Source: Ottowia sp.
GTDB taxonomy: Bacteria; Pseudomonadota; Gammaproteobacteria; Burkholderiales; Burkholderiaceae_C
NCBI RefSeq assembly: GCF_046348305.1
Contig: NZ_JAXMEM010000012.1
Span: 35,618-99,617, forward strand
Reading direction: 5' to 3'
Length of the DNA stretch: 64,000 nucleotides
Both the position numbers and the translations under genes were made by a program. The notes under the pieces were generated by a model, which did no database searches, was not told the origin of the DNA, and saw only the letters and a list, made by a program, of their open reading frames with translations. Shown here piece by piece: positions 21,916 through 36,341 of the stretch (within the stretch, counting starts at the first letter, position 1; every line of letters starts with the position of its first letter).

Positions 21916-23829
21916 TCACGAAGTCGATTCGGCGGCCGCCGCACGCGGCGCATTGAGCACGAAGGCATCGGAGAAACACGCGCCCTCTTCCAGCCCGTGC
22001 GACAAAAAGGCGGGCACCGCCGTCTGCACCATCATGGTGGAGCCGCAGGCGTACAGCTCCTGCCCGCGCATGTCGGGAAAGTCCTCCAGCACCGCCTGGT
22101 GCACCAGGCCGCGGCGGCCCTCCCAGCCGTCGCCCGGCGCGCCATCGGACAGCACCGGGATGAAGCGGAAGTTGGCGTGCTCGCACTGCCAGGTTTCGGC
22201 CAGATCGCGCATGTACAGGTCGGACACCTGGCGCACGCCCCAGTACAGGCGCATGGGCCGCGTGATGCCGCGCGCAAAGGCGTCCTCGATGATGCTCTTG
22301 ACGGGCGCAAAGCCCGTGGCCCCCGCCAGAAAGACGATGGGGCGCTCGCCTTCGCGCAGCGTGAAGCGCCCCAGCGGCCCCTCCAGGCGCAGCGTGTCGC
22401 CCACCTGCATGCCGTCGAACACATGGCCGGTGAAGCGCCCGCCCGGGATGCGCCGCACGTGCAGGTCGATCAGCGGGCGCTGCATCGGCGGGTTGGCAAA
22501 CGAGAAGGCGCGGCGCTCGCCGTCCTCCAGGATCACGTTCAGGTACTGGCCGGCGATGAAGTCCAGCTTCAGGTCGGCCGGGGGTTGCAGCAACAGGCGC
22601 ATCACCTCGGGCGCCAGGCGTTCCATGCTGACCACGGTGGCGCTGAACTCTTGCTTGATCAGGGGCTCCAGGGTTTCGACCTCGATCTCCAGGTCCTCCA
22701 GCGGCACGGCACAGCACATCAGCGCCTGGCCGCGCTCGCGCATGGCCTCGGTCAGCGTGGCGGGCTGATACGGGCCGTGGTCGAACTTGCCGTTGAGCAC
22801 CGTGCACACGCACAGCCCGCAGCCGCCGGCGCGGCAGTCGTATTGCAGCGGCAGCTCGGCGCGCAGGCCGGCCTCCAGGATGGTCTCGCCGCGGCGCGCC
22901 GACACGTGGCGCGCATCGGGATGCACGGTCACGTTCAGGGTGCGGGCCGCGCCGCCCGCGCGCCGCCACACCAGCCAGGGTTGCACCAGCAGCAGGCCGG
23001 TCACGCCCAGCACCAGCGCCCAGGTCCAGGCCGGCCCCCAGGCGTGCACCAGCGGGTACAGGCCCAGCAGCAGCCAGTCGAGCTTGAGCTGGCTGGGCAC
23101 CACGGCCATGTGCGCGGGGCCGCCCTGGCTGACGACGGGCAGCACCAGCGCCAGCACCAGCAGCATCACGCCGGCACTGACGGCGATCGGCTTGGGCGGC
23201 TGCATGGCCGCCTTGGGCACGCGCTGCACGTGCACCCACATCAGCAGCAGCGTGAGCAGCGGCACGCCGATGTGGATGAACACCAGCAGCGAAAACAGGC
23301 GATCGCTCACGGTGCTGTCGTAGATGAAGTTGCGGATCAGCGAGCCGCGGAACAGCGGAATCCAGTCCAGCCACTCGAAGCTGGTGGTGGTGACGAACTG
23401 GGCGAGCTGGTCCCAGGGCAGCATGTAGCCGTTGGCGCCGGCGGCATACACCAGCCAGATCAGCGCCACGCCCGTGACCCACGAGAACGCACGGAAGCCG
23501 CGCAGCCGGTCGAACGCGAAGTAGCGCAGCATGTGGATCACCATGGTCACCACCATGGCGTCCGAGGCGTAGCGATGCACGCTGCGCACGATGCCGCCGA
23601 TGAACCACTGCCGGTGCGTGAGCCCCTCCACCGACTGGTAGGCCCCCGTCACGCTGGTGTCGAAGAAGGCAAACAGGTACAGGCCGGTGCCGGCGACGAT
23701 CCAGAACAGGAAGAAGGTCAGCGGACCCAGGTGGTAGTAGGGGTTCAGGCGGTCGCCGAAGGCGCGGTTGAAGACCGCCTCCACCCGCATGAAGCCCCAG
23801 CGCATCAGCGCCTGCAGCCGACCGATCAT
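21916..23829 (-). CDS. Diheme cytochrome b fused to [2Fe-2S] ferredoxin and FAD/NAD(P)-binding reductase
   Basis: HRYASDAMVVTMVIH and HIGVPLLTLLLMWVH His pairs (14 apart), GYMLPWDQ; CRAGGCGLC...C; RRAFSFAN, AGATGFAP, YACG. Confidence 0.85.
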   Translation of the reverse strand: MIGRLQALMRWGFMRVEAVFNRAFGDRLNPYYHLGPLTFFLFWIVAGTGLYLFAFFDTSVTGAYQSVEGLTHRQWFIGGIVRSVHRYASDAMVVTMVIHMLRYFAFDRLRGFRAFSWVTGVALIWLVYAAGANGYMLPWDQLAQFVTTTSFEWLDWIPLFRGSLIRNFIYDSTVSDRLFSLLVFIHIGVPLLTLLLMWVHVQRVPKAAMQPPKPIAVSAGVMLLVLALVLPVVSQGGPAHMAVVPSQLKLDWLLLGLYPLVHAWGPAWTWALVLGVTGLLLVQPWLVWRRAGGAARTLNVTVHPDARHVSARRGETILEAGLRAELPLQYDCRAGGCGLCVCTVLNGKFDHGPYQPATLTEAMRERGQALMCCAVPLEDLEIEVETLEPLIKQEFSATVVSMERLAPEVMRLLLQPPADLKLDFIAGQYLNVILEDGERRAFSFANPPMQRPLIDLHVRRIPGGRFTGHVFDGMQVGDTLRLEGPLGRFTLREGERPIVFLAGATGFAPVKSIIEDAFARGITRPMRLYWGVRQVSDLYMRDLAETWQCEHANFRFIPVLSDGAPGDGWEGRRGLVHQAVLEDFPDMRGQELYACGSTMMVQTAVPAFLSHGLEEGACFSDAFVLNAPRAAAAESTS

Positions 23830-25253
23830 GCCGGCACCTCCATGGACCGGGCCCGCATGGCGCGCAGCACCACGACGACGAACAGCAGGCCGCCGATCAC
23901 GGCCAGCAGCCCGCCCAGGCCCATCAGGCCCATGCCGGCCACCTCGGCCGTGCTGCGCAGCACCTGCTCGCTGCCGGCCACCTTGCGCTGCACGCCATAG
24001 CCGCCCGACCAAACCAGGCCGATGATGTGCATCAGCTGCCCCGCGCCATACAGCCAGGGCTGCCACACCGCCATGCGCCCGCGCGGCGCGCTCCAGCCCA
24101 GCGTGGGCAGCAGGTGATAGACGATGCCCATCAGCGCCAGCGTGACGCCCACGATGCAGCCGTGGTAGTGCGCCGGAATCTTGACGTTGCTGCCGCTGAT
24201 CAGCATGCCGATCACGCCGCCGCAGGCGAACAGCAGCATGGAGCTGACCAGCGCGCCCCACAGCGGCCTTTGCTCATCGCGCAGCCGGCGCAGCGGCGCC
24301 AGTGCCAGCACCACGGCCAGCGCGATGGGAAAGATCGCCAGCCCGCCCCCAACGCGCATGGCCCAGGTGTGCAATTGGCGGTTTTCCACGCTGACGGCGT
24401 CATACGCCACATAGGCGTAGGGCGTGATGAACACGCTGACCAGCGCCAGCATGAGCAGCAGCAAGGCGATGCGCGGGCTCAGCAGCACCCGCCCGCCGCA
24501 GGCATGGGCCAGCCACAGCCACACCACCAGCATCAGCAGCGTCCAGGCAAACTGCAAGGCGTGGCCACCGCCCCAGAAGAGGATCTCGTAATAGGTGCGC
24601 AAATCCATGCGGGTGGGCACCGCGGCAAACGACCAGGCAAAGGCCAGCAGCGCCACGGCCACGCACACCACGCTGGCACTCAACCCGAAGCGCAGCGCGC
24701 GCTCGCCGTCGATCACGCCGCCCAGGCGCGGGGCGGCCAGCAGGCTGCGCAGCACCTGCACGCCCAGGCCCAGGCCAAAGACGACCAGCCCGGCCAGGAA
24801 CAGCGGCCCGTGCAACACCGGGATGTAGTTGGCCATGATGGCCTCGCCCGGGCGGATGAAGGCGCCCAGCGCCATCAGCACCGTGCCGCTGCCGCACAGG
24901 CCCAGGGCGGCCCAACTCCAGCCGAGGCCGCGCTCGGTGGTGTTCAGGCTCCACAACATGCCCGCCATGGCGGCAAACCACACCAACACCGACAAATCCA
25001 CGTGCACCACCAGTGCCACGCGAAAAAAGTCGGCAACCGGAAACCACTGGTTGACGCCCGGCGTGCGCGCCAGCACCAGCAGCACCGAATAGAGGCCCGA
25101 GCCAGCCAGCGCCGCCAGCCCCAGCGCCAACCAGGCCCGCGCCAGCGCGCGCTGGGCGGTGGTGGGCTGCGGCAAGGTGTAGGCGGCAGGCTCTGCCGTG
25201 CGCGGCGCGTACAGCGCGTGGGGATCGAAAATGGCTTGTGCAGGGTGATTCAT
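23826..25253 (-). CDS. Heme-copper oxidase subunit I-like paralog with degenerate binuclear site
   Basis: ~12 TM; LVVHVDL, ILFWGGGHALQF, IPAHYHG; only one His (QLHTW) where the HH pair is expected. Confidence 0.75.
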   Translation of the reverse strand: MNHPAQAIFDPHALYAPRTAEPAAYTLPQPTTAQRALARAWLALGLAALAGSGLYSVLLVLARTPGVNQWFPVADFFRVALVVHVDLSVLVWFAAMAGMLWSLNTTERGLGWSWAALGLCGSGTVLMALGAFIRPGEAIMANYIPVLHGPLFLAGLVVFGLGLGVQVLRSLLAAPRLGGVIDGERALRFGLSASVVCVAVALLAFAWSFAAVPTRMDLRTYYEILFWGGGHALQFAWTLLMLVVWLWLAHACGGRVLLSPRIALLLLMLALVSVFITPYAYVAYDAVSVENRQLHTWAMRVGGGLAIFPIALAVVLALAPLRRLRDEQRPLWGALVSSMLLFACGGVIGMLISGSNVKIPAHYHGCIVGVTLALMGIVYHLLPTLGWSAPRGRMAVWQPWLYGAGQLMHIIGLVWSGGYGVQRKVAGSEQVLRSTAEVAGMGLMGLGGLLAVIGGLLFVVVVLRAMRARSMEVPA

Positions 25254-25336
25254 ATCAATCTTCCAGGGTGCTGCCAAGCGCCGGGGGCGCCGCAAACCCA
25301 AAGCGCCCATTGGCCGCCGAGCGGGCCATGACAGCG

Positions 25337-25406
25337 AACGCCGTGGCCGGACCTGCGCCGGCCACAGGCGTTGCCCCTCCTCCAGGCGCAGCGCCAGAGA
25401 GGAGGG
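25337..25406. repeat. Two GC-rich intergenic hairpins inside the respiratory cluster
   Basis: AACGCCGTGGCCGG/CCGGCCACAGGCGTT (25337-25372); CCCTCCTC/GAGGAGGG (25375-25406). Confidence 0.65.
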
Positions 25407-25436
25407 AAGGCGCGCAGCGACGCAGGGAGGTGTTCA

Positions 25437-25970
25437 TTAGAACGTGATGCCGCCCTTCTCGGCGTTGTAGTCGATCACCAGGACTTGATTGGGTTTGAGC
25501 GTCACCGTGTCCTCGAGCTGCGCCGTGAAACCCGGAGCGCGTGCGTCGTCCTTCATGCGAACGGCAATTTTTTGTTCCCCGGCCGGCACCTGGACCCGCC
25601 GATATACCGCGGAGGCGCCATCGCGCTTCAGGCCACTGGGCTCGGCCGTCTCTTGCAGCACGCGCCGGCCGTTGATGTCCACCTCGATGCTGACGGGCGA
25701 GCGCTCGCGCGGGCAAATCTGCTTGGGACGCATCTGCGGGGGCAGCTTGGCCTTTTCTTCCTCGGTCAGGGGGCGGCAGTCGCCCACCGGCTTGCCGGTG
25801 TGCGTGAAGCTGATCTTGATCAGCGCATCGCCCGGCGGCAGCGGGTGGTAGACGGGCCAGTGCGAGAACACGCCGATGAACACGGCAAACAAGACGTACA
25901 GCAGCGCCTGGCCCAGCCATGCCCCCACGGAAACGCGATGGCGCGAAGGATCGACGGTGGAGGCATTCAT
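25437..25970 (-). CDS. Membrane-anchored hypothetical protein, coupled to the cytochrome b-MvhD gene
   Basis: One N-terminal TM, two Cys (DCRP, QICPRERSP); ATG overlaps upstream stop. Confidence 0.7.
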   Translation of the reverse strand: MNASTVDPSRHRVSVGAWLGQALLYVLFAVFIGVFSHWPVYHPLPPGDALIKISFTHTGKPVGDCRPLTEEEKAKLPPQMRPKQICPRERSPVSIEVDINGRRVLQETAEPSGLKRDGASAVYRRVQVPAGEQKIAVRMKDDARAPGFTAQLEDTVTLKPNQVLVIDYNAEKGGITF

Positions 25971-27562
25971 GTGGACAACTCGAGGGCGGATGGGGTGCGC
26001 TCGCGCGCCGACTGCGGGCCGCGCCAACGATCGAGGATGGGTGCGATGGCATCGGCATCCCGCGCACCGGACCAGACCATGGCCCAGCGTTCGCGCGGCA
26101 CGGTGGGCCGCAGGCGGGGCTCGCGCACGCCGTGCAGGCGCTCGTGCAACAGCGTGGCGCCGTCGCGGAACGCGCAGTGGCCGGGCGCGCACGCCTGCAC
26201 GAGCACGCCGGCGGCGCCGTCGCGCAGCGCGTATTCGACGAAGGCGGGCGGCAACTGGCCGACGCACAGCAATTCGATGGCCACCACGTCGGGCGCCAGC
26301 AGGCAGGCCGGCGGCGGCACGTGGGCGCAGCGAAAGGCCACGATGGATCGGGCCGCGGGCGCAGCCTGCAGCCGCTGGCGCAACTGCTCGCGCAGTGTGT
26401 TGACCGGCAACTGCGGCATGTCGATGCCGCTTTGCAAATCGGCCACGCTGCGAAATGGCGTCGCCGATGGGCAGGCGCCGGCGCAGATGCCGCAGCGCGC
26501 GCAGCGCTCGGCATCGACCACGGCCAGCTCATGACCGGGCTTGCCGCTGGGGTGCGCGACCATGCCGATGGCGGCGTAGGGGCAGTCATCGACGCAGCGC
26601 CGGCAGCCGCTGCAATAGTCGGGATCGACCCGGGCCGCGGGCGCGTCCTCGCGGCGGTGCGGCATGAAGGGCAGCCACAGCAGACCGGCCAGGGCGCCAC
26701 CCAGCACAACCCAGGCGAGCCCGCCCGACAGCGCGTCGGCCATGGGGTGGACAAACAGCAGCAACCAGTCCAGCCGCAGCGCGGCGGGCACCCGGGTCAT
26801 GTCGGCCGCCGGACCGCTGACCACGGGCGTCACGGTGGCCAGCCCCACGAACATGGCCAGCAGACCCAGGGCCAGCGGCTGCGGCGGCACGACGCGCGCG
26901 CGCGGCAGGCGCTGGATGTGAAACCACAGTCCGAACGTCATCAGCAGCGCCACGCCCAGATGCACGAAGACGAACAGCGAGAACAGGCGGTCGCCCACCG
27001 TGTCCAGCGACAGGAAGTTGCGCGCCAGCGGCGTGGTCAGCCCCGGCAGGGCGTCCAGCCATTCGGCGGTGGCCAGGGCCGAGTACTGGCCCAGCTCGTC
27101 CCAATTGAGCCAGAAGCCGCCGATGCCGCAGACAAAGGCAAACACGATGAGCGGCACGCCGGTGAGCCAGCTGAAGCGGTGATGGGCGCGAAAGCGCCCA
27201 TGCAGCCATTCGCGCAACGCGTGCAGGCCCATCAGCAGCACGAAGGCATCGGCCGCGTAGCGATGCACGCTGCGCAGCCAGCCACCGTAGAACCAGGGCC
27301 ACGCGGCCAGGCGCTCGATCGAGGCGTGGGCGCCGGCGGCCGAGGTGTCGATGACGGCGTACAGGTAAATGCCGCTGGCCGCCAGCGTCCAGAAGCACAG
27401 AAAGGCCATGCTGCCCAGGTGATGCAGCGGATTGAGCGCCGGCCACGTCCAGCGGTCGATGCCGCGCTCGAGCGCTTGCCAGGCAGCCAGGGCGCGCCCT
27501 GGCGCTGCCGGAGCCCCGGCGCGGCGCGGCACCGGCGCGGGCAGGACAGCGGCGGCATTCAA
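25967..27562 (-). CDS. Diheme cytochrome b fused to 2x[4Fe-4S] ferredoxin and MvhD/FlpD-like domain
   Basis: TTG start overlapping SCO stop; HRYAADAFVLLMGLH, HLGVALLMTFGLWFH; CSGCRRCVDDCP, CARCGICAGACP; IVAFRC..LLCVGQ..GVLVQACAPGHCAF. Confidence 0.82.
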   Translation of the reverse strand: MNAAAVLPAPVPRRAGAPAAPGRALAAWQALERGIDRWTWPALNPLHHLGSMAFLCFWTLAASGIYLYAVIDTSAAGAHASIERLAAWPWFYGGWLRSVHRYAADAFVLLMGLHALREWLHGRFRAHHRFSWLTGVPLIVFAFVCGIGGFWLNWDELGQYSALATAEWLDALPGLTTPLARNFLSLDTVGDRLFSLFVFVHLGVALLMTFGLWFHIQRLPRARVVPPQPLALGLLAMFVGLATVTPVVSGPAADMTRVPAALRLDWLLLFVHPMADALSGGLAWVVLGGALAGLLWLPFMPHRREDAPAARVDPDYCSGCRRCVDDCPYAAIGMVAHPSGKPGHELAVVDAERCARCGICAGACPSATPFRSVADLQSGIDMPQLPVNTLREQLRQRLQAAPAARSIVAFRCAHVPPPACLLAPDVVAIELLCVGQLPPAFVEYALRDGAAGVLVQACAPGHCAFRDGATLLHERLHGVREPRLRPTVPRERWAMVWSGARDADAIAPILDRWRGPQSARERTPSALELST

Positions 27563-28455
27563 TGCAGGGCCTCCGCAGGCACCGGTGCGCTCCGGCGCAC
27601 TTGCCGGCGGGCGCGCCGATGGCGCCGCCATTCGAGCACGAAGTACCCGATCATCCACACGAAGAACACCATGCCGCCAACGATCTCCATCACCAGCGCG
27701 TACTTGAAGCGGTAGGTGCCGGTCTCCGGGTCGTATACGGTGCACAGGATGCGCACGCGTTCGAGCAGGCCGGCCAGCGTCTCGCGCTGGGTGACGGGCG
27801 CGCGGCCCAGCAGCTGGCGCAGTGGCTCGCCGAGCTGCTGCGCCGTCAGTTGGTCGCCCCAGACCTGGGTGGCGATCTTGCCCTCGGCATCCAGCACGGT
27901 GACGCCCAGGATGTGATCGAAGCCCGCCGGCGTGGCCAGGTAGCTGAAGCCGAAGCTGCGCGTGAGCGGCTCCACGATCTTGGCGTGCGGGCTGAGGAAC
28001 TCCCAGTTGGGGTACTTGATGCCGTACTGCGCGGCAAACGAGCGCAGCGCCACCGGCGAGTCGGCCGGCTGGTTGAAGCCGATGCTGACGACGTTGAACT
28101 GGCCCGGGCTGAGCAGCTGGTCCAGCCCCTTGACGGCTTCGTGCAGGTTGCGCGTGCTGGTGGGACAGATCTCGAAGCAGCCGGTGTAGATGAAGCTCAC
28201 CAGCAACGGCTTGCCCCGGTATTGGGACAGCCGCACCGGCTTGCCCTGGCGGTCGAGCAAGGTGAAGTCGGGCGGCGTCGTGCCGATCACGGCCTGGCCG
28301 GCGGCCAGCGCGGCGGTGGCGTCCAGGCGGGGCACGGTGCTGGCCACGGCGTCGTCCGCCTGCGCCCATCCGGCGGCGCCCAGCAGGGGGAGCACGCCTG
28401 CCAGCGTCCACAGCATGCGTTGCACACGCTGGGCCAGCCCGGTCACCGCTTTCAT
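27559..28455 (-). CDS. SCO-family copper chaperone with C-terminal TM extension
   Basis: YTGCFEICP CxxxC, conserved His in GFDHIL, thioredoxin fold. Confidence 0.88.
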   Translation of the reverse strand: MKAVTGLAQRVQRMLWTLAGVLPLLGAAGWAQADDAVASTVPRLDATAALAAGQAVIGTTPPDFTLLDRQGKPVRLSQYRGKPLLVSFIYTGCFEICPTSTRNLHEAVKGLDQLLSPGQFNVVSIGFNQPADSPVALRSFAAQYGIKYPNWEFLSPHAKIVEPLTRSFGFSYLATPAGFDHILGVTVLDAEGKIATQVWGDQLTAQQLGEPLRQLLGRAPVTQRETLAGLLERVRILCTVYDPETGTYRFKYALVMEIVGGMVFFVWMIGYFVLEWRRHRRARRQVRRSAPVPAEALH

Positions 28456-28513
28456 CCGCACGTTCAAGCTCCGAACCGCCACGGCCAGCGCCGCGGCGAT
28501 CAACGGGCCACGC

Positions 28514-30214
28514 TCAACTGAGGCCCCACAGGGTGGACAGGTACTTCCAGTTGATGAAGTAGTACAGCACGAAGGCCACCAGGAACACCATGGCCAGCAC
28601 GAAGGTGCCGGGGGCCGCAAAACCGGCCGAACCGGCGGTTTGCGCCACCACGGTGGGGGCGGTGCGCGGGATCGGCGTGAAGGTGGCGCGCTCGGCGCCG
28701 CGTTCGAGCTTCTTGCCCCACAACAGCGAACCGACGGTGACGTAAATGTAGATCGCGCCACCGGCAATTGCCGCCACGCCGCCGATGCCCACCAGGCCCA
28801 TCATCAGGTAGGCGGCGCCCGGCCATTCGTAGGCCAGCGGGTTGCCGCTGAAGGCCATGTCCCAGTGGCGACGCGACACGCCCAGGGTGCCGGCGCCCAT
28901 CATCACCAGGCAGAAGAAGTACATCGAGAAGCCGAAGATGTACGGTTGCCACTTGGCCAGCTTGGGCGCGATCATCTCGCGCTTGAACAGCACCGGGATC
29001 AGGTAATACGTCAGCGCCATGAAAGTCAGCGTGGTGCCCACGACGACGGTGGCGTGAAAGTGGCCCGGCACATAGATCGTGTTGTGGATAATCATGTTGA
29101 GCTGCTCGGTGCCCATCATCACGCCCGAGATGCCGCCCAGGAAGCCAAAGCCGATGATCGAGATGAACACGCCCGAGAACGTGGGGTTGCCCCAGGGCGC
29201 CTTGCGCAGCCACTCGAACAGGCCCTTGGTGAAGCCCTTTTGCCGCTGCGCCACTTCCATCGCGCCGGGCACCGTCAGGCCGTGCAGCATCGAGGCCAGC
29301 ACCGCGAAGTACATGAAGTAACTGGTGTTGACGATCTTCCAGGGCGTGGACAGGCCCGGGTCGGCCAGCAGGTGGTGTGCGCTGGCCAGCTGGAGGAACA
29401 AGATGTAGAGCAAAAACGCCGTGCGGCTGACGCGCTCGCTCATCGGCTTGGCGCCGAAGACGACCGCTGCCACCAGATACCACACCGAGATGTGCGCGGC
29501 CACGTTGATCTGCTGCGAGGAGTGTCCCAGCGCCCACCAGATGGTGCGGTAGGCCAGCGGATCGACCTGCTTGATCAGGCCGATGGACATCAGCCAGGTC
29601 GGGATCAGGATGATGGCGCCCGACAGCAGGGTGAACACCGCAATGATGGCCGCCGTGATGGCGCCCATGGTGACCAGCGGCACCGAGCCCTGATAGGTGC
29701 GGTCGCGCTTGGCGACGACCAGGGTGCCGAAGAACACGCCGCATCCGATCAGCGCGCCGACGGCGAACAGGATGATGGTCAGATAGAACCAGGACGAGGC
29801 CATCATGGGCACGTAGCTGGTCATCATGACGCTGGAGCTGCCCTGGAACACGACGATGTTGTTGCCCACCGAGCCGATCACCATCAGCGCAAAGGCCAGC
29901 CAGGCGAGCTTGGGTGTGGCAATGCGGCAGCGCAGCAAGGTGGAGGCGCAGAAGTACAGGATGGCGATCTCAAAGAAGATCAGCCAGAAGATCAGCATGT
30001 CCAGGCCATGGGCCGTGAGCACCATGTAGAAGGTGTCGGCCTCCAGCCAGTGCACCGCCGGCCAGCGCGTGAGCACCACGCCGATGGCCAGCAGGCCGCC
30101 GAAGGCCAAGAACAGCACGCCGGCGACGGCGTTCCACATGATGAGTTTTTCGGCCTGCGCTTCAAATTGCAGGCCCGATCGCGGGCAGGTGCGATAGGTG
30201 GTGGCTTGTCCCAT
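28514..30214 (-). CDS. Heme-copper oxidase superfamily subunit I, B-family-derived, eNOR-like (Gln at cross-link Tyr position)
   Basis: TAHG, WWALGHSSQQ, SAHHL, PGHFHAT: all six His present; H+4 residue is Q, not Y. Confidence 0.85.
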   Translation of the reverse strand: MGQATTYRTCPRSGLQFEAQAEKLIMWNAVAGVLFLAFGGLLAIGVVLTRWPAVHWLEADTFYMVLTAHGLDMLIFWLIFFEIAILYFCASTLLRCRIATPKLAWLAFALMVIGSVGNNIVVFQGSSSVMMTSYVPMMASSWFYLTIILFAVGALIGCGVFFGTLVVAKRDRTYQGSVPLVTMGAITAAIIAVFTLLSGAIILIPTWLMSIGLIKQVDPLAYRTIWWALGHSSQQINVAAHISVWYLVAAVVFGAKPMSERVSRTAFLLYILFLQLASAHHLLADPGLSTPWKIVNTSYFMYFAVLASMLHGLTVPGAMEVAQRQKGFTKGLFEWLRKAPWGNPTFSGVFISIIGFGFLGGISGVMMGTEQLNMIIHNTIYVPGHFHATVVVGTTLTFMALTYYLIPVLFKREMIAPKLAKWQPYIFGFSMYFFCLVMMGAGTLGVSRRHWDMAFSGNPLAYEWPGAAYLMMGLVGIGGVAAIAGGAIYIYVTVGSLLWGKKLERGAERATFTPIPRTAPTVVAQTAGSAGFAAPGTFVLAMVFLVAFVLYYFINWKYLSTLWGLS

Positions 30215-30224
30215 GGTGCGTCCC

Positions 30225-30767
30225 TCAGTCCTTGATGTACATGCGGCCCACCATGGTGTGGTGGCCAATTCCACAGAACTCGTTGCACACGATCGAGATC
30301 TGGCCCGACTGGTTGGGCGTGATGGTCAGCACGTGCTCGAAGCCCGGCACCAGCTGGATGTTGATGTTCTGCGGCTGCAGCGAGAAGCCGTGGTTGTAGT
30401 CCATGGCCGTCAGATGCAGGCGGTATTTCTCGCCCTTCTTCAGCTCCAGGATGGGCCAGAAGTTCCACAGCCGGCCCAGCATGTAGACGTCGCTGCCCGG
30501 CGGCGGGGCCACCACGGGCGTGTTTTGCTCGCCTTCGGTGCGCACCGTGTACTTGTCGACCACGGCCTGCGCCTTGGCCGTGAACTTCTCGGGCGTGGTG
30601 CGGTAGGTCTCGGTCGACAGGTTCTGGTTGCCCCAGACGTGCCAGCCGACCATCATGACGAACATGATCAGGCACCAGGTCAGCGACAGCACGATCCACG
30701 TGCCTTCGACCCGGTCGATGGGATGCTTGTACCAAAGCCGCTCGGGCGGCGGAAGAATGGCGCTCAT
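30225..30767 (-). CDS. Heme-copper oxidase subunit II with CuA site
   Basis: Single TM; DYNHGF and CNEFCGIGHHTM CuA motif; no CxxCH. Confidence 0.92.
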   Translation of the reverse strand: MSAILPPPERLWYKHPIDRVEGTWIVLSLTWCLIMFVMMVGWHVWGNQNLSTETYRTTPEKFTAKAQAVVDKYTVRTEGEQNTPVVAPPPGSDVYMLGRLWNFWPILELKKGEKYRLHLTAMDYNHGFSLQPQNINIQLVPGFEHVLTITPNQSGQISIVCNEFCGIGHHTMVGRMYIKD

Positions 30768-30807
30768 GGTGTGGAACCTCGGGGTGGAAAGGCGATCGGA
30801 CCGGGGC

Positions 30808-30972
30808 TTACTTGCCCAGGGGCAGCATCATGATTTCGACCACGCCCCACAGGTTGTAGACCAGCATGGGAATCAGCACGCCCAGGAACAGCAGGATGAA
30901 GGGGCTGTCCAGCAACTGCTGCATCCAGGGAATGGGTTCGTTGGGGTCGTTCAGGTCGTCTTTCTGGCTCAT
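30808..30972 (-). CDS. Small single-TM oxidase subunit (IIa-like, 54 aa)
   Basis: MSQKDDLNDPNEPIPWMQQLLDSPFILLFLGVLIPMLVYNLWG; first gene of operon; GGAGGG RBS. Confidence 0.7.
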   Translation of the reverse strand: MSQKDDLNDPNEPIPWMQQLLDSPFILLFLGVLIPMLVYNLWGVVEIMMLPLGK

Positions 30973-31052
30973 GGATCCCTCCGGTGGAAAACCCGCGCCC
31001 AAGCGGACGCGGGGAGGCTCGCCCATTCTCGAGTAACCCACTCGGGATTGAT

Positions 31053-31066
31053 TTGACTTAGTTCAA
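31053..31066. promoter_or_regulatory. FNR/DNR/NnrR-type binding site
   Basis: TTGACTTAGTTCAA matches TTGA-N6-TCAA; lies between the oxidase operon and divergent ctaA-like gene. Confidence 0.7.
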
Positions 31067-31121
31067 TGTTTGGCGCCGCGGCCCGGCGGGCCGGCCGGAC
31101 GTCGCGCTACGATCGCGCGCC

Positions 31122-32066
31122 ATGACGCCCACCGCCCCCAGCGCCAGCAGCCCCCCGTCCGACCCCGACGCGCGCGATCCGGCACGCCGACTGCGCCGCA
31201 TGGCCCGGCTGTGCGCCGCGCTGGTGCTGGCGATCATCACGCTCAGCGCGTGGCTGCGCCTGGCCCGATCCGGCATTGGCTGCGCGGACTGGCCGGCCTG
31301 CTACGGAGCGGTGTGGCAAGCGGCCGCCCCCGCGCTGCCGGCCGGCGCCGAGACGTCCGCCACGGTTCTCGCCGTGCGGCTGGCGCACCGCGTGCTGGCG
31401 GTGGCCGCGCTGGTCTTGATCGTCGTCATGCTGGCCAGCGCGTGGCCGCCGCGCCGGCACGGGTGGCGACCGGCGCTGGAAGCCGGCGCGCTGCTGGCCG
31501 TCACCCTGGGCCTGGCCGTGCTGGGGGCCCTGGGCGCGCAGTCGCTGCTGCCGGCGGTGGCGCTGGGCAACCTGCTGGGCGGCTTTGCCATGCTGGCCCT
31601 CAGCCTGCGCCTGGCCAGTGGCCGGCCCATCGACGCCGGAACCGGCGCTCGCGTCTGGCTATGGGCCGCGTTCGGGCTGGTGCTGCTGGAAACCGCACTG
31701 GGCGGCCTGGCCAGCGCCAGCGGTTCCCTGCTGGCCTGCGACGGCCTGAGCGATTGCTGGGCAGAGGCACAGGACGGGCCCGCATGGAGCGCGCTGAACC
31801 CCTGGCACGCCCCAGCGCTTGGCGGCGGCGCCGGCGTGCAATGGGCGCACCGGCTGGGCAGCTGGCTCGTGCTCTTGCTGGCTGCGCCGCTGGCCTGGCG
31901 CCTGCGCCCGCACGATCGGCGCGGCGCCGCGGCTGTGCTGGCCTGCCTGCTGCTGCAAGCCGCACTGGGGCCGCTGATGGCGAGCGCCGGCTATCCGATG
32001 GCGCTGGTGCTGGCGCACAACGTGCTGGCGGCCTTCACGCTGGCCTTGCTGGCACGCTGGCTCTGA
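31122..32066 (+). CDS. COX15/CtaA-family heme A synthase-like protein
   Basis: GCADWPAC, LAHRV, ACDGLSDC, WAHRLG, LAHNV; 8 TM pattern. Confidence 0.8.
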   Translation: MTPTAPSASSPPSDPDARDPARRLRRMARLCAALVLAIITLSAWLRLARSGIGCADWPACYGAVWQAAAPALPAGAETSATVLAVRLAHRVLAVAALVLIVVMLASAWPPRRHGWRPALEAGALLAVTLGLAVLGALGAQSLLPAVALGNLLGGFAMLALSLRLASGRPIDAGTGARVWLWAAFGLVLLETALGGLASASGSLLACDGLSDCWAEAQDGPAWSALNPWHAPALGGGAGVQWAHRLGSWLVLLLAAPLAWRLRPHDRRGAAAVLACLLLQAALGPLMASAGYPMALVLAHNVLAAFTLALLARWL

Positions 32067-32080
32067 GATTGACCCGCCGG

Positions 32081-32521
32081 CTACTTCTTGCCCTTCATCA
32101 GCGCCTGCAAGCTGGCCATGTTCTCCTGCATGCGCTGCTGCACCACCTTCCAGGCGTCGGTGCGGGTCTTGGTCTCCAGCGCGGCCAGTTCCTGGAAGTC
32201 CTTCATGGCCTTCTTCATGCCGCGTTGCAACACCTCGCCCTGCTTGGCCATCGCGTCCTTGTCCAGCGCGCCTTTCATCGACTCCTGCAGGGCGGCCAGG
32301 TTCTCGCGCAGGATGGCGCTGCGCCGCTCGGCCAGCGCCTTCATGCCCTCATAGGCCTGGCGATTGGCCTCGGCCAGGGCCTCGAAGTCCTTGCGCTGCC
32401 ATTCGACCAGCGCGCTCGCGTCCACGCCGGGCAGCTTGAACTGCTTGAGCGTCTTGGTGAGTTCGCCCAAATCGGGCATGCCGGGCGCGGCGGCAGATGA
32501 CTTCTTGGTGCTTGTGGCCAT
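32081..32521 (-). CDS. Phasin-family protein
   Basis: FKLPGVDASALVEWQRKDFEALAEANRQAYEG; helical, Lys/Ala-rich. Confidence 0.8.
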   Translation of the reverse strand: MATSTKKSSAAAPGMPDLGELTKTLKQFKLPGVDASALVEWQRKDFEALAEANRQAYEGMKALAERRSAILRENLAALQESMKGALDKDAMAKQGEVLQRGMKKAMKDFQELAALETKTRTDAWKVVQQRMQENMASLQALMKGKK

Positions 32522-32567
32522 GACGATCCTCCAGGGGCGGGTTGAAAAACGGTGGGAATGACAGACG

Positions 32568-34151
32568 CTACGAGGCCGCCGCACGCGAACGCACGCGCTT
32601 TGCGGCAGCCGGTTTGTCGCCGGCTGATTTGCGGGCGGGCGCGCGGCGCGGCGCGGACTTCTTGCGCGCCGGGGGCGGGGCGGCGGCGGCCACCGGCGCC
32701 ATCGTGTCGGCCGGTGTGCCAGCGCCCTCCGCGCCATCCACGGCCGGCAGGCGCTTGATTTCGGCCAGCGCGTCTTGCAGGTAGCCCAGCAGTTCGGTGG
32801 ACTCGTCCTGCGACAACGCGCGGCGGCAGGCGGTGATGCCGAACTCGAGCGTCCCGGCATAGCTCTGGACGGTGATGTTGACGGCCATGCCGTGGTAGGG
32901 AATGGAGACGGGATAAAACGCCACCATCCTGGCGCCTGCCACGTACAGCTGGATGGCGGGCCCGGGCACGTTGGAGACGGTGACGTTGGCCAGCGGCGGC
33001 AGCCGGCGCGCCAGGTTGGAGCGCCCGTACAGCGAGGCCAGGCTGGTCATGACCCAGGGCGAGCCGGTGAAGGGCAAGTCCACGCCCAGCACGGGCTTGA
33101 GTTCGCGCACCACGGCCTTGGCCGCCTCGGACGAAGCGTGGATGGCCGCAAAGCGCGCGGCGGGGTCTGCCAGGTCGGTGGCCAGATCGACCCGCACCAT
33201 CGACACCTGGTTGTTCATGTCGTCGTTGCCCTCCACGCGCAGGCTGACCGGCACCGCGGCGATCAGGGGCTGGGCGGGCAGCAGGTTGCGCTCGGCCAGA
33301 AAGCGCCGCAACCCGCCGGCGCACATCGCCATGACGATGGTGTTGACCGTGCCGCCGACGCGCTTGCCCAGCGCCTTGAGCTCATCCATGGGCACCGACA
33401 GGGTGGTGAACGAGCGCTGGTTGGTGATGGCGTCGTTGAAGATGGTCTTGGGCGCCAGGCCCAGGTTGAGCGCGCGCTCGCCCGGTGTGCTCTGCTGGCC
33501 GGCCAGCACCCGCGCGGCGGTGGTGAGCGCGCGCGCCGCGGTGGGCAGCAGCTCGGCCAGCTTGCGGTATTGCTGGGCGGTGTTGGTGACGGCCGCCTGC
33601 AAGAGCTCGGTCACGCCCAACTGATAGGCCGTGGCGCGGCGCGCGCGGTGCGGCGGGCGCACGCGGCGGATTTCGGCGGAGGTGTCATACAGCACCTTGG
33701 CCAGCTCGGTGCCGGCCTTGCCGTCCACCCCGCTGTGGTGGGCCTTGGTGTAGAAGGCCACCTGGCCGTTTTGCAGGCCCTCGATGACGTACATCTCCCA
33801 CAGCGGGCGGCTGCGGTCGAGCAGGCTGGAATGCAGTCGCCCCACCAGTTGCTGCAGCTGCGCCATGGAGCCCGGCCGGCGCAAGACGAGGCTGCGCACG
33901 TGGTAGTCCAGGTCGATGTCGTCATCATGGATCCACACCGGCTCGGCCAGCTCGAACGGCATGGTGGCCAGCTTGCGCGTGAGCACCGTGGCCAGGTGCA
34001 GGCGCTCGCCGATCATGGCCTTGACGTCTTCGTAGAAGTCGCCCTGGTAGTCCCTGGGCAGCTCCAGCAGCATGAGGCTGCCCACGTGCATGGGCGTCTC
34101 GGGCGTTTCAAGATGCAGAAAGGATGCGTCGAGGCTGCTGAGGTGGTGCAT
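32568..34151 (-). CDS. Wax ester synthase/diacylglycerol acyltransferase (WS/DGAT)
   Basis: LSSLDASFLHLETPETPMHVG, HHSGVDG catalytic motif, LDRSRPLWE, NVTVSNVPGP. Confidence 0.93.
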   Translation of the reverse strand: MHHLSSLDASFLHLETPETPMHVGSLMLLELPRDYQGDFYEDVKAMIGERLHLATVLTRKLATMPFELAEPVWIHDDDIDLDYHVRSLVLRRPGSMAQLQQLVGRLHSSLLDRSRPLWEMYVIEGLQNGQVAFYTKAHHSGVDGKAGTELAKVLYDTSAEIRRVRPPHRARRATAYQLGVTELLQAAVTNTAQQYRKLAELLPTAARALTTAARVLAGQQSTPGERALNLGLAPKTIFNDAITNQRSFTTLSVPMDELKALGKRVGGTVNTIVMAMCAGGLRRFLAERNLLPAQPLIAAVPVSLRVEGNDDMNNQVSMVRVDLATDLADPAARFAAIHASSEAAKAVVRELKPVLGVDLPFTGSPWVMTSLASLYGRSNLARRLPPLANVTVSNVPGPAIQLYVAGARMVAFYPVSIPYHGMAVNITVQSYAGTLEFGITACRRALSQDESTELLGYLQDALAEIKRLPAVDGAEGAGTPADTMAPVAAAAPPPARKKSAPRRAPARKSAGDKPAAAKRVRSRAAAS

Positions 34152-34175
34152 GGCTTGGTGTCCAGGGACTGGGGA

Positions 34176-34763
34176 TCAGGCGCCGGCCACGCCGTAGGCG
34201 GCGTGGCGCCCGGCCACCGCCGCGACGTCGTGGCTGAGCAGCACCAGGTCGTGCAGGTCGCCGTCGCGATCGGCCACGTGCTGGCGCAGCAGGGCTTCGG
34301 GGTGAAACCCGAGGTCCTCGAACACGGCGATGGCGCCGGTCTGGTTGGTGGTCATTTGTGCCACCAGTTTTTTCAACCCCAGTTCGAGCGCCTGGATGAA
34401 GCACTCCTGGATCAGGCAGCGGCCCAGCCCGCGGCCGCGCTCGGACGAAGCCACCAGCACGCGCAGCTCGCCCACGTGGCGCGACCAGCTCAGCGGATCG
34501 GTGTAGATGGAGCTGCAACCCACCAGTTGGCCGCCCCGACGCGCCGCCAGGCCGGCCATGCGCCCGTCTTGCAGCGCGGCCATCCAGGCGTCGATCACCT
34601 TGGGATGGTTGATGTCGCGCGGCACGAACAGCAGGTCGGTGGTGGGCAGCCGGGCGACGAACTCGACCAGTGCCGCGCGGTCGCTGGCCTGCAGGCGGTT
34701 GAGTTCGACGGCGTCGCCGCCGCACTCGAGCGTGCGCGGGTAGCTGCGTGAAGCTTCGGTCAT
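34176..34763 (-). CDS. GNAT N-acetyltransferase
   Basis: ERGRGLGR acetyl-CoA motif; start overlaps phaC stop (ATGA). Confidence 0.85.
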   Translation of the reverse strand: MTEASRSYPRTLECGGDAVELNRLQASDRAALVEFVARLPTTDLLFVPRDINHPKVIDAWMAALQDGRMAGLAARRGGQLVGCSSIYTDPLSWSRHVGELRVLVASSERGRGLGRCLIQECFIQALELGLKKLVAQMTTNQTGAIAVFEDLGFHPEALLRQHVADRDGDLHDLVLLSHDVAAVAGRHAAYGVAGA

Positions 34764-35848
34764 ACGGAACGTCCCTCCAGCCAGGCGTCCAGCCTGGGCC
34801 ACATGCGTTTGACAGCGTTGGCGCCGGCGGCAATGCTGACATGGCCGCCGGGCAACGTGACTTCTTCCTTGTCGGTGGAGCCGATCATGCCCAGCAAGGG
34901 TTGCGAGCAGGCGGCGGGCACGATGTGGTCGTACTGCGCGGCGATGTGCAGCAGCGGAATGGTGATCTGCTTGAGATCCACCGGGCGCCCGCGGATCGTC
35001 AGCGTGCCCTTGTACAGCGCGTTCTCGCGCAGCAACTCCTTGGTCATCTCGCGAAAATAGCCGCCCGGCACCGGCAGGGTCTCGTTGCCCCAGCGCTCCA
35101 TCATGCGAAAGCCCACCACGTACTGATCGTTCCACATGTTGTCCCACAGCTTGATCTGCCCGGCCACGCGGCTGGCGGGGCGCAGCGCGTCGAAGCCGTT
35201 CCTGATGAAATCGGCGGGGATCACGCCGTTGCGATTGACGAAGGCATCCAGATCGAACGCCTTCTCGTCGGACATGGCGCGAAACAGCTCCATCTGCGAG
35301 AAGTCGATGGGCGTGGTGAAGCAGGCAATGTTGCGCACCGGCCCGCCCGGGTGCAGCGCCAGGTAGATCAGCGAGAGCATGCCGCCGGCGCAATACGACA
35401 CCAGGTTGACGTCCTCCTCGCCCGAGTCCTGCTGCACGCGCCGGATGCAGTCGGGGATGAAGTCCAGCACGTAGTCGGCCAGGCCCAGGTCGCGCTCGGC
35501 GGCGGTGGGCGCGTTCCAGTCGATCATGTAGACGTCGTAGCCGCGCTTGAGCAAAAACTCGACCAGGCTTTGGCCGGGCGCCAGGTCGAGCACGTAACCC
35601 TTGTTGGTGGGCGCCATGACGATCAGCAGCGGAATGCGGTAGACCTCGTCGGCCAACGCGTGGTAGTGCACCAGCTCGACCGTGCCGCGCCGGTGCAGCA
35701 CGGTCTTGGGCGTGCGGCCCACCGTGGGCGGCTCCGCGCCCATCAGCTCGATGCCCTTCAGGCCGCGCTGCACGGCGCGCTCCACTTCCAGGCGCAGGCG
35801 CTCGGTCAGGGCCAGGTCGGCGTCGCTGGTGCGGGCTTGGGTGGCCAT
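34760..35848 (-). CDS. phaC: Class III-type PHA synthase catalytic subunit
   Basis: TPKTVL, VLDLAPGQSLVEFL, SYCAGG catalytic Cys, YDHIVP, PGGHVS. Confidence 0.85.
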   Translation of the reverse strand: MATQARTSDADLALTERLRLEVERAVQRGLKGIELMGAEPPTVGRTPKTVLHRRGTVELVHYHALADEVYRIPLLIVMAPTNKGYVLDLAPGQSLVEFLLKRGYDVYMIDWNAPTAAERDLGLADYVLDFIPDCIRRVQQDSGEEDVNLVSYCAGGMLSLIYLALHPGGPVRNIACFTTPIDFSQMELFRAMSDEKAFDLDAFVNRNGVIPADFIRNGFDALRPASRVAGQIKLWDNMWNDQYVVGFRMMERWGNETLPVPGGYFREMTKELLRENALYKGTLTIRGRPVDLKQITIPLLHIAAQYDHIVPAACSQPLLGMIGSTDKEEVTLPGGHVSIAAGANAVKRMWPRLDAWLEGRSV

Positions 35849-35852
35849 GATG

Positions 35853-36341
35853 TCAAGCCTTGGCGGGGCGACGGGACCGGGAGGCGGTCTTGGCGGTCTT
35901 GGCGGGCTTGGCCTTGGTCTTGGCCGATGCGTCCTGGTTGGCCTTGGGCGCGGGCGCCACGGCTTCGGGCGCAGCCTGGGCCGGGGCAGCGGGCGCGCTG
36001 GGCGCGACGACGGGTGTGGCCGCAGGCTTGCGTGTGCGCGCCGGGCGGGGCACCTCATCGGGGGGCAGCAGGCGATCGAGTTTCTGCTCGATGCGCTCCA
36101 GCGTTTGCACCAACTCGGCCAGTTGCTTGCGGCTGGGCAGGTTGGCGCGGCGCAGGTAGCCATCGACCATCTTGTCGAAGCCCTGTTGCATGCCGGCGGA
36201 CACCGCCGTGGCCTGTTGCAGCGAGCGCACCAGCTCGGGCGACTTCAGGCTGCCGGTGGCCATGGTATTGGCCTCACCCTCCAGGCGGTTGATGGCGTCG
36301 CGCCACATCTGCAACGGGTCGAGAAACAGCGAGGGGATCAT
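35853..36341 (-). CDS. PhaE-like PHA synthase subunit with Ala/Lys/Pro-rich tail
   Basis: YLRRANLPSRKQLAELVQTLERIEQKLDRL; directly upstream of phaC. Confidence 0.72.
   Translation of the reverse strand: MIPSLFLDPLQMWRDAINRLEGEANTMATGSLKSPELVRSLQQATAVSAGMQQGFDKMVDGYLRRANLPSRKQLAELVQTLERIEQKLDRLLPPDEVPRPARTRKPAATPVVAPSAPAAPAQAAPEAVAPAPKANQDASAKTKAKPAKTAKTASRSRRPAKA

Follow-up and report, generated by a model that had tools for sequence, protein, structure and literature searches.

Within the window (the 64-kb stretch of the Ottowia sp. genome analyzed here), positions 21916-32066 hold a respiratory cluster of eight minus-strand genes (g1 to g8) and one divergent plus-strand ctaA-like gene (Table 1), in which an eNOR-type nitric oxide (NO) reductase is encoded together with a widely conserved, uncharacterized cytochrome b electron module that has been noticed once, in a preprint. 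The cluster region has a G+C content of 70%, and its longest open reading frames (ORFs) therefore overshoot the real genes; start codons were chosen from ribosome-binding sites, stop/start overlaps, and comparison with relatives, which places the real starts of g3, g4, g5, g6, g7, and g8 well inside the longest ORFs. The ATG of g1 at 30972 is preceded by GGAGGGA, and the TTG start of g5 follows GGAGG. Stop and start codons overlap at three junctions, namely g4/g5 (TTGA, the g5 start overlapping the SCO stop), g5/g6 (ATGA), and g7/g8 (ATGA), as had been claimed in a preliminary description of this DNA; the minus-strand genes, the divergent ctaA-like gene, and the FNR-type box listed there are likewise all present where it had placed them. 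Its observation that the cluster lacks a Rieske protein, cytochrome c1, and CxxCH proteins also holds for the nine proteins, none of which contains a CxxCH motif or matches a Rieske or cytochrome c1 family in Pfam or NCBIfam, a result that covers the cluster and says nothing on the rest of the genome.

Table 1. Genes and other features of the eNOR-cytochrome b cluster (window positions; aa, amino acids; TM, transmembrane).
Feature	Position	Strand	Length and remarks
g1, small protein with one TM helix	30808-30972	-	54 aa
g2, CuA-type subunit II	30225-30767	-	180 aa; one TM helix and periplasmic cupredoxin domain
g3, eNOR-type heme-copper oxidase (HCO) subunit I	28514-30214	-	566 aa
g4, SCO/SenC copper chaperone	27559-28455	-	298 aa; signal peptide and C-terminal TM helix
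g5, cytochrome b + 2x[4Fe-4S] + MvhD/FlpD	25967-27562	-	531 aa
g6, TM helix + beta-sandwich	25437-25970	-	177 aa
183-bp insertion with 60-codon ORF	25254-25436	-	between g6 and g7
g7, divergent COX1-like subunit-I paralog	23826-25253	-	475 aa
g8, cytochrome b + Fer2 + FAD_binding_6 + NAD_binding_1	21916-23829	-	637 aa
ctaA-like heme A synthase gene	31122-32066	+	314 aa
CRP/FNR(Dnr/NnrR)-type box TTGACTTAGTTCAA	31053-31066		unstranded; TTGA-N6-TCAA

The terminal enzyme formed by g1, g2, and g3 is predicted to be an eNOR-type NO reductase. The g3 protein matches Pfam COX1 (E = 2.6e-61), and its best solved relatives are B-family oxidases (7deg_A, 1e-42; T. thermophilus ba3, ~2e-39). Its GHSSQQ motif (H231-x3-Q235) aligns with GHPVVY of 7deg and with the T. 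thermophilus counterpart, and Q235, which is conserved in at least 95% of 61 orthologs, therefore replaces the cross-linked Tyr; Gln at this position is diagnostic of eNOR (PMC8756737). The conserved residues H69, H231, H280, H281, H385, and H387 retain the three His of the CuB/FeB site and the axial His of both hemes. In a partial view of the K-channel, a Ser of g3 aligns with S309 of ba3 and a His with T312. The g2 protein matches Pfam COX2 weakly, and also NCBIfam CoxB and the NosZ C-terminal model; its CuA site is complete (H126, C161, E163, C165, H169, and M172), with ba3-like spacing and at least 95% conservation in 63 sequences. With its single TM helix, g1 occupies the position of cbaD (subunit IIa) in ba3 operons, and a hidden Markov model (HMM) built from its orthologs also matches a small ORF upstream of subunit II in the eNOR operons of Defluviimonas, Thermus, and Thermomicrobium; g1-g2-g3 is found in every eNOR operon examined here. 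The eNOR-like character assigned earlier to the heme-copper enzyme is thus borne out by Gln235, the retained His ligands, the CuA subunit II, and the B-family relatives. The eNOR of Rhodothermus marinus, which reduces NO rather than O2 and carries heme As (Murali et al. 2024, PNAS, PMC11214002), shares with the window the Gln in place of the cross-link Tyr, the metal and heme His, a CuA subunit II, kinship with the B-family, and ctaA at the operon. It differs in that artificial donors were used in the assay and that its description includes no partner with cytochrome b, Fe-S, or flavin (PMC11214002), whereas in the window and in many Proteobacteria the eNOR operon includes four extra redox or membrane genes.

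Two of these extra genes, g5 and g8, encode cytochrome b fusions. In g5, Pfam identifies Cytochrome_B, Fer4 families, and FlpD (E = 3e-12), and sequence matches in the PDB are to cytochrome b6 (4e-20), MvhD (5e-7), and the ferredoxin domain of HdrA. The heme ligands H100/H114/H201/H215 (13-residue spacing) are conserved, together with eight Cys for two [4Fe-4S] clusters and with C412, C433, C458, and C463 in the MvhD part, which is predicted to bind a [2Fe-2S] cluster. In g8, Cytochrome_B (PF00033/PF13631) is followed by Fer2, FAD_binding_6, and NAD_binding_1, in that order; the NCBIfam BenC model matches with E = 4e-53, yet below the model cut-off. PDB matches to g8 comprise the 5ogx reductase (2e-50), 1krh (1e-34), T4moF, BenC, and MmoC, as well as cytochrome b6 (9e-21), and the solved relatives of its soluble half are all NAD(P)H-oxidizing one-electron donors (NADH-to-[2Fe-2S] reductases). 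Conserved in g8 are H85/H99/H186/H200 (13-residue spacing), C332/C337/C340/C372, RxFS, and GATGFAP.

The cytochrome b domains of the two proteins share 48% identity and are homologous to helices A-F of cytochrome b, including the cd-helix motif LPWDQ (LPWxQ). At the position of PEWY they carry L-D-W-L/F (xDW(F/Y)-type), with D251/W252 invariant, and Pro205 stands five residues after the n-side heme ligand in place of the Qi-site His, which we take to correspond to bovine H201. Six TM helices are indicated by hydropathy in both proteins and by the secondary structure of the AlphaFold2 (AF2) model in g8; that model was built from an 18-sequence alignment and has a predicted local distance difference test (pLDDT) score below 60 in its membrane part, so that it is usable for the helix count, not for distances or a fold search. 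With six helices that correspond to A-F of cytochrome b, g5 and g8 must expose their Fe-S and flavin domains to the cytoplasm; domain matches, conserved ligands, and topology therefore agree with the earlier description of these proteins as cytochrome b fusions with cytoplasmic NAD(P)H/Fe-S domains. Homologs of g8 with the same five-domain architecture number in the thousands and bear generic names in the sources, and the g5-like family comprises 411 representatives (50% identity clusters) at E <= 1e-30 in a full HMMER search. Within g8, His33 (~23731-23733) is invariant in 18 aligned homologs (65-92% identical), varies in remoter members, and aligns with Cys35 of cytochrome b6, which binds heme cn covalently at the n-side; His33 might be the sign of an additional cofactor or a site where the Fe-S domain makes contact.

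Both proteins can be compared with several known systems. Like cytochrome b of the bc1 and b6f complexes, they have helices A-F, four His for two hemes, LPWxQ, and (E/D)W in the ef-loop; unlike these, they lack the Qi-site His, have no Rieske or c1/f partner in the cluster, and carry soluble redox domains in place of helices G and H (or of helix G of subunit IV); in g8, moreover, His33 occupies the position of Cys35 of b6. The cofactor set of g5 (diheme cytochrome b, two [4Fe-4S], MvhD-type domain) is that of QmoC plus the MvhD part of QmoB, as in QmoABC and Hdr-Mvh systems, although Qmo and HdrE have a NarI-type cytochrome b, belong to cytoplasmic sulfur metabolism, and include no HCO. The soluble half of g8 has the domain order of class IB-type Fdx-FNR proteins such as BenC, MmoC, and T4moF ([2Fe-2S], then FAD_binding_6 and NAD_binding_1), but is fused behind a membrane cytochrome b, unlike the known members. 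As proposed here for g8, the NOX/FRE family places a cytoplasmic FNR-type NAD(P)H/FAD domain on a six-helix diheme membrane domain and moves electrons outward; the likeness is one of logic only, as NOX/FRE proteins have a ferric-reductase fold, lack a [2Fe-2S] domain, and reduce O2 or extracellular Fe(III), and g8 does not match a ferric-reductase-type membrane domain (its membrane part being Cytochrome_B). An HCO and a bc-type cytochrome b are also encoded together in the SoxABCD and SoxM systems of Sulfolobus, where they act as a single complex lacking cytochrome c1 (and, in SoxABCD, lacking Rieske as well), and the NCBIfam SoxC model matches both g5 and g8 weakly. However, SoxC is a plain quinol-oxidizing membrane cytochrome with no cytoplasmic Fe-S or flavin domain, SoxA has no CuA, and the substrate is O2.

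The remaining two extra genes encode a protein of a nameless family (g6) and a second subunit-I paralog (g7). No Pfam or NCBIfam family was found for g6, and all of its 956 homologs are labeled 'hypothetical'. Its AF2 model (pLDDT 88) comprises a helix (15-35) and a beta-sandwich, for which Foldseek against the PDB returned only generic beta-sandwiches, none at E <= 0.001; Cys65 and Cys86 are conserved, and there is no cofactor motif. In natural g5-g6 fusions g6 is joined via one TM helix after the cytoplasmic MvhD domain, which makes its beta-sandwich a periplasmic attachment to g5. A degenerate subunit II was considered for g6 and ruled out (hhalign probability against g2, 0.4%). The g7 protein is a genuine HCO subunit-I homolog and a paralog of g3, based on Pfam COX1 (E = 9e-14) and hhalign against g3 (probability 98.9%, 24% identity); it has no sequence match in the PDB. 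Residues H84, H231, Q234, F235 (at the Tyr position), Y281, E290, H362, H364, and H409 are invariant in 121 sequences, so that g7 retains the ligands of both hemes and one metal His, with the canonical His-His pair of helix VII replaced by Tyr-Leu/Val. Most orthologs have His284 (98/121), His291 (113/121), and His295 (112/121), adjoining the invariant Glu290, and these four residues could form a non-canonical metal site; the window copy, in which residues 284-295 lie at ~24369-24404, has Tyr284 and Asn291.

The association of g5-g8 with eNOR is widely conserved. A scan of species-representative genomes yielded 80 loci (58-94% identity) in Burkholderiales, Lysobacterales, Steroidobacteraceae, Rhodocyclales-like metagenome-assembled genomes, and the isolate Simplicispira lacusdiani. 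In 61 of the 62 loci with enough flank to test gene order, g1-g8 are collinear on the same strand, and the other 18 loci agree over their shorter reach; this arrangement is far above chance. The 514 related genomes in the scan do not equal 514 fusion proteins, as one search pattern falls in the generic FNR domain. The lone exception is Ca. Accumulibacter vicinus (L070 7839-11917), in which a g5-g6-g8 triad lies apart from eNOR; this triad is flanked by LolA-like, ABC-transporter, DUF1302, rpe, and trpE genes, with no g7 or HCO gene within 10 kb. Metagenomes were scanned with degenerate patterns from g5-g6 fusions (~26-39% identical to the window g5), which gave four true loci among 600 candidates and is not a survey. 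Two of them (L084, L085) encode subunit II, eNOR subunit I (GHSAQQ or GHSSQQ), SCO, and g5/g6, without g7 or g8; the distant contigs with this eNOR, SCO, g5, and g6 core include marine-sediment ones. A third (L086) has the full set in another order (g8-g6-g7-g5), and the Defluviimonas (Alphaproteobacteria) plasmid NZ_CP156080 (L088) has g1-subII-subI-cyoE-SCO-g5-g6-hemerythrin. These distant loci, together with the 61 collinear ones, answer in the affirmative the gene-neighborhood check of whether the cytochrome b fusions are linked to oxidase genes across genomes. In the Defluviimonas locus the hemerythrin-family gene (L088 14532-14936) is directly 3' of g6; hemerythrins bind O2 or NO, and this one may be a sensor or buffer tied to the eNOR system. 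Haloarchaeal plasmid matches (~30% identity) bear the annotation of a ba3-type oxidase subunit 1.

Not every eNOR operon carries these genes. The plasmid eNOR operons of Thermus thermophilus (GHGAQQ; His/Lys helix X) have no cytochrome b gene within 9 kb, and the megaplasmid eNOR operon of Thermomicrobium roseum is without the cytochrome b module; accordingly, g5-g8 are an accessory module and not intrinsic to eNOR. On T. thermophilus pTF24b (L089), the eNOR (GHFK in helix X) adjoins nirS, cytochrome c552, and an Rrf2 (NsrR-like) regulator, again with no cytochrome b module, and this locus would be a natural comparison case of a cytochrome c-fed eNOR. In the loci compared, g5 and g6 form a widespread accessory core, and g7 and g8 seem to have arisen later, in Beta- and Gammaproteobacteria, through duplication of a pair consisting of an HCO subunit I and a cytochrome b.

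Natural fusions among the best 150 of the g5-like representatives indicate that SCO, the cytochrome b proteins, g6, and g7 touch one another, and point to what may be one membrane complex. In 62 of the 150, g6 is fused to the C-terminus of a g5-type protein. Single cases join cytochrome b and g7 in both orders (P0436, P0437), SCO with cytochrome b and Fer4 (P0440), and cytochrome b with a CPR-type flavodoxin-FAD-NAD(P)H reductase (P0435); a g5-g6 protein fused to cytochrome c (P0473) is one of 150 representatives and hence not general.

The operon also contains its own cofactor-biogenesis genes. The ctaA-like gene matches Pfam COX15-CtaA (E = 2.5e-26), with the Cys pairs and His ligands conserved in orthologs; ctaA lies divergently upstream in 34 of 61 complete loci and elsewhere or downstream in eight, and many eNOR operons include it (Murali et al., PMC11214002). 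Its presence in the locus hints at the use of heme A. The g4 protein matches Pfam SCO1-SenC (E = 1.2e-13), with C93xxxC97 and H181 conserved in at least 95% of ~60 orthologs. A ctaB/cyoE heme O synthase gene lies between subunit I and SCO in most of the relatives among the 62 loci (e.g., L078 4660-5573). In the window and its nearest relatives (L001-L003, L015, L039, and L080) there is no trace of it between g3 and g4 (28456-28513 in the window), and no ctaB was found anywhere in the 64 kb; ctaB has been lost in the clade of the window.

Regulation of the operon by an FNR/Dnr-type factor is probable, via the candidate box TTGACTTAGTTCAA in the spacer between ctaA and g1, whose center lies ~88 bp before the start codon of g1. 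The window contains no other TTGA-N6-TCAA, and 0.1 such boxes would be expected in it by chance; a strict box of this form occurs in the 300 bp preceding g1 at 23 of the 62 loci versus ~1.2 expected (from a background of 98 per 1.56 Mb). The 10-kb surroundings include a Crp/Fnr-family regulator gene in 28 loci and nirS in ~12. Inside the operon, neither a notable terminator nor a notable promoter was detected. In metatranscriptomes, RNA contigs that match exactly cross the g3/g4 and g4/g5 junctions, with DNA carry-over possible, and the window sequence is common in metagenomes of activated sludge and wastewater.

The gene set has been reported once before. A preprint on Ferrigenium straubiae (bioRxiv 10.64898/2026.01.22.701106) describes an operon for eNOR II and I, heme O synthase, and sco1, together with a 'scaffold protein' and two cytochrome b proteins termed 'rather unusual'; both cytochrome b proteins were detected with eNOR in the proteome during denitrifying Fe(II)-oxidizing growth. 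Its authors propose a quinol:NAD+ oxidoreductase in a supercomplex with eNOR, driven by NO reduction (bioRxiv 10.64898/2026.01.22.701106). The KS operon described there shares its gene set with that of the window, namely eNOR II and I, sco1, the 'scaffold', one cytochrome b protein with [Fe-S], FAD, and NADH domains, and one with [Fe-S] domains; it differs in its heme O synthase and in the gene order g8-g6-g7-g5 (as judged by L086). The preprint includes no survey of distribution or fusions and no biochemistry, and its direction of electron flow is opposite to the one favored below. The preliminary description knew of no characterized equivalent of this architecture; none was found in the literature searched, so that this part stands, but the architecture had already been noticed in the Ferrigenium preprint.

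We infer from sequence how the module g5-g8 might form a complex, which way its electrons might flow, what might accept them, and what physiological role might follow. Of the readings considered, the likeliest, although still somewhat short of an even chance, is that the locus is an FNR/Dnr-regulated eNOR operon with its own cofactor-biogenesis genes and an accessory redox module that contacts the HCO subunits and feeds cytoplasmic electrons to eNOR. In this scheme, g8 would oxidize NAD(P)H at its cytoplasmic FNR-type FAD domain and hand single electrons via the [2Fe-2S] cluster to the n-side heme b and on to the p-side heme b. Likewise, g5 would pass electrons from a cytoplasmic Fe-S-level donor, for which the flavin domain of g8 is a candidate, through the MvhD [2Fe-2S] and two [4Fe-4S] clusters to its b hemes, and the paralogous cytochrome b domains of g5 and g8 would pair as cytochrome b does in bc complexes. 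From the p-side hemes, electrons would reach eNOR at the low-spin heme within the membrane or through CuA; candidate acceptors of the module are CuA, the eNOR low-spin heme, g7, or quinone. The periplasmic beta-sandwich of g6 would be a docking element, and g7, with its degraded metal site, a pseudo-symmetric partner or scaffold of g8. NO would thus be reduced by a route that does without the quinone pool, bc1, and cytochrome c. As electrons and protons would both come from the cytoplasm, there would be no net charge separation, which suits NO detoxification or redox balancing better than energy conservation; the largely non-electrogenic route is therefore envisaged to serve one of these two purposes during micro-oxic denitrification. 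Hmp and NorVW are functional analogs, in that they remove NO with NAD(P)H apart from the respiratory chain, but they differ as soluble cytoplasmic proteins of other folds and chemistry. The outward direction of electron flow is favored because the reductase half of g8 is akin to NADH-oxidizing donors and because of the CPR-type variant P0435.

Several observations weigh against this proposal. The most widespread core form is eNOR with g5 and g6, without the NAD(P)H-binding g8; eNOR operons devoid of g5-g8 exist (Thermus, Thermomicrobium), and the triad of Ca. Accumulibacter vicinus stands alone. The R. marinus eNOR was purified as two subunits (by sodium dodecyl sulfate-polyacrylamide gel electrophoresis) and was active with ascorbate and tetramethyl-p-phenylenediamine (TMPD) (PMC11214002). 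No periplasmic redox mediator is encoded in the cluster, and direct transfer from the p-side heme b to CuA may be too far, with CuA sitting over subunit I. The PEWY-like xDW(F/Y) motif kept at the p-side is compatible with a quinol site. In the metatranscriptome contigs, coverage of g4-g8 is at least 10-fold below that of g2 and g3, contig depth being a rough measure. The g8 AF2 model has low confidence in its membrane part, and no biochemical, genetic, or structural study of the cytochrome b module was found in the literature searched, where the 2026 Ferrigenium preprint is the sole mention encountered. The self-contained chain from NAD(P)H/Fe-S to NO that had been put forward in the preliminary description hence stands in part: the cytoplasmic Fe-S and flavin domains, the donor-type relatives of g8, and the genetic linkage speak for it, whereas the module is accessory rather than intrinsic and its core form is without g8.

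One alternative, which we consider unlikely, is that g5-g8 form a separate enzyme in which g7 is catalytic. This reductase would derive from an HCO, be driven by NAD(P)H, and act on O2 (as a scavenger), NO, or some other small oxidant; cytochrome b would feed it within the membrane, and its tie to eNOR would be no more than co-regulation. The natural cytochrome b-g7 fusions in both orders and the overlap of the g7 stop with the g8 start would fit a catalytic g7, as would its ligands for both hemes and its invariant H231, Q234, Y281, and E290, which with the mostly conserved His291/His295 allow a possible altered metal site; subunit II would be needless if heme b delivers electrons inside the membrane. 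The helix-VII His are, however, not strictly conserved (Y284 and N291 in the window), which fits a degenerate scaffold better, and g7 is missing both from the widespread eNOR, g5, and g6 core and from the Accumulibacter triad, while it never occurs without eNOR in the loci examined.

It is rather unlikely that the module serves biogenesis or maintenance, by exporting electrons for heme A synthesis by CtaA, by reducing Cu(II) or thiols in SCO/CuA assembly, or by re-activating eNOR. The synthesis of heme As, which eNOR needs, takes electrons and O2, and yeast Cox15 receives electrons from ferredoxin and ferredoxin reductase. The module is located amid the assembly genes ctaA, ctaB, and SCO, and its SCO-cytochrome b fusion and the conserved periplasmic Cys pair of g6 would accord with such a role; transcripts of g4-g8 are covered far less than the structural genes, a common pattern for assembly factors. 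Conversely, two metagenome loci (L084, L085) have g5/g6 beside eNOR with no ctaA match to the ortholog HMMs in the locus, the Thermus and Thermomicrobium eNORs do without the module, and two diheme wires, five Fe-S clusters, a flavin, and an HCO paralog would be a heavy investment for assembly. Both cytochrome b proteins were, moreover, abundant enough for detection in the F. straubiae proteome.

A quinol-oxidizing role, as put forward in the Ferrigenium preprint, is quite unlikely. Here the module would be a Rieske-less bc-type quinol oxidase acting with eNOR, its Qo-like p-side sending one electron to CuA/eNOR and the other via the b hemes to NAD(P)+ or a ferredoxin-level acceptor. In a specific form that we regard as improbable, all subunits would make up one supercomplex with Qo-type bifurcation in the absence of Rieske, CuA taking the high-potential electron and the low-potential one reducing NAD(P)+ or a ferredoxin-level carrier, so that NO reduction would power reverse electron flow. 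The cytochrome b domains are true bc/b6 homologs, with LPWDQ in the cd-helix and xDW(F/Y) at the PEWY position, the midpoint potential of CuA is near that of the Rieske center, MvhD domains are known from electron-bifurcating Hdr-type complexes, and the operon occurs in F. straubiae, an autotrophic Fe(II) oxidizer in need of reverse electron flow. However, by our own estimate from standard potentials, ubiquinone (+90 mV) and CuA (~+240 mV) would leave the second electron at -100 to -240 mV, moving inward against the membrane potential and short of NAD+ (-320 mV), which makes bifurcation strained with ubiquinone. The Pro205 substitution at the Qi site, the NAD(P)H-oxidizing nature of all solved relatives of the g8 reductase half, and the CPR-type reductase of P0435, a dedicated NADPH-to-heme donor, also argue against this role, and most carriers are activated-sludge or soil heterotrophs (Rubrivivax, Ottowia, Dokdonella) with no obvious need for reverse flow. 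Were bifurcation correct, it would represent a new respiratory energy coupling and a new source of reductant for lithoautotrophic denitrifiers.

That the cytochrome b fusion genes are mere neighbors of the eNOR operon with no functional link, as the lone Accumulibacter triad and the eNOR operons without the module might suggest, is barely credible in view of the collinearity in 61 of 62 loci across Burkholderiales, Lysobacterales, and Steroidobacteraceae, the linkage kept in Alphaproteobacteria and distant metagenome lineages despite reordered genes, the stop/start overlaps, and the SCO-cytochrome b fusion.

If the module does feed cytoplasmic electrons to eNOR, this would be the first heme-copper enzyme to receive its electrons from the cytoplasmic side with no part played by quinone, bc1, or cytochrome c, and a large family of bc-type cytochrome b fusions (the 411 clusters) would gain a function. 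NO reductases such as eNOR make nitrous oxide (N2O), a greenhouse gas, and the energy yield and control of NO/N2O turnover in such denitrifiers would then differ from textbook models; few NO reductases are commoner than eNOR in environmental data, wastewater organisms express it, and 547 genomes in GTDB bear it (PMC11214002). Because natural fusions exist and several carriers can be cultivated (Simplicispira lacusdiani CPCC 100842, locus L078; Defluviimonas sp. SAOS-178_SWC; and Ferrigenium cultures), the question is open to direct testing.

The window copy of the operon differs from its closest relatives (L001, L002, and L003) in the 183-bp insertion between g6 and g7; in these relatives the insertion is missing and the g6 stop overlaps the g7 start (ATGA). 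The ancestral g7 start now opens the 60-codon ORF in another frame, and g7 restarts at the ATG at 25253 with the length of its N-terminus unchanged. This 60-codon ORF is probably not a gene: of the ten genes counted in the preliminary description, nine are credible, and the tenth is likely this ORF, which has no counterpart in the closest relatives. The insertion carries a GGCCGG...CCGGCC hairpin and a weak terminator-like element, and it may uncouple g7 and g8 from g5 and g6.

On one flank, the cluster is adjoined by genes for a Pat-like acyl-CoA synthetase/acetyltransferase and a lytic transglycosylase, which are unrelated to it. The other flank (32081-36341), likewise unrelated to the cluster, encodes a phasin, a WS/DGAT wax-ester/triacylglycerol synthase, a GNAT protein, a class III-like PhaC, and a possible PhaE-like ORF, a storage-lipid and polyhydroxyalkanoate neighborhood that fits a storage-polymer organism of activated sludge.

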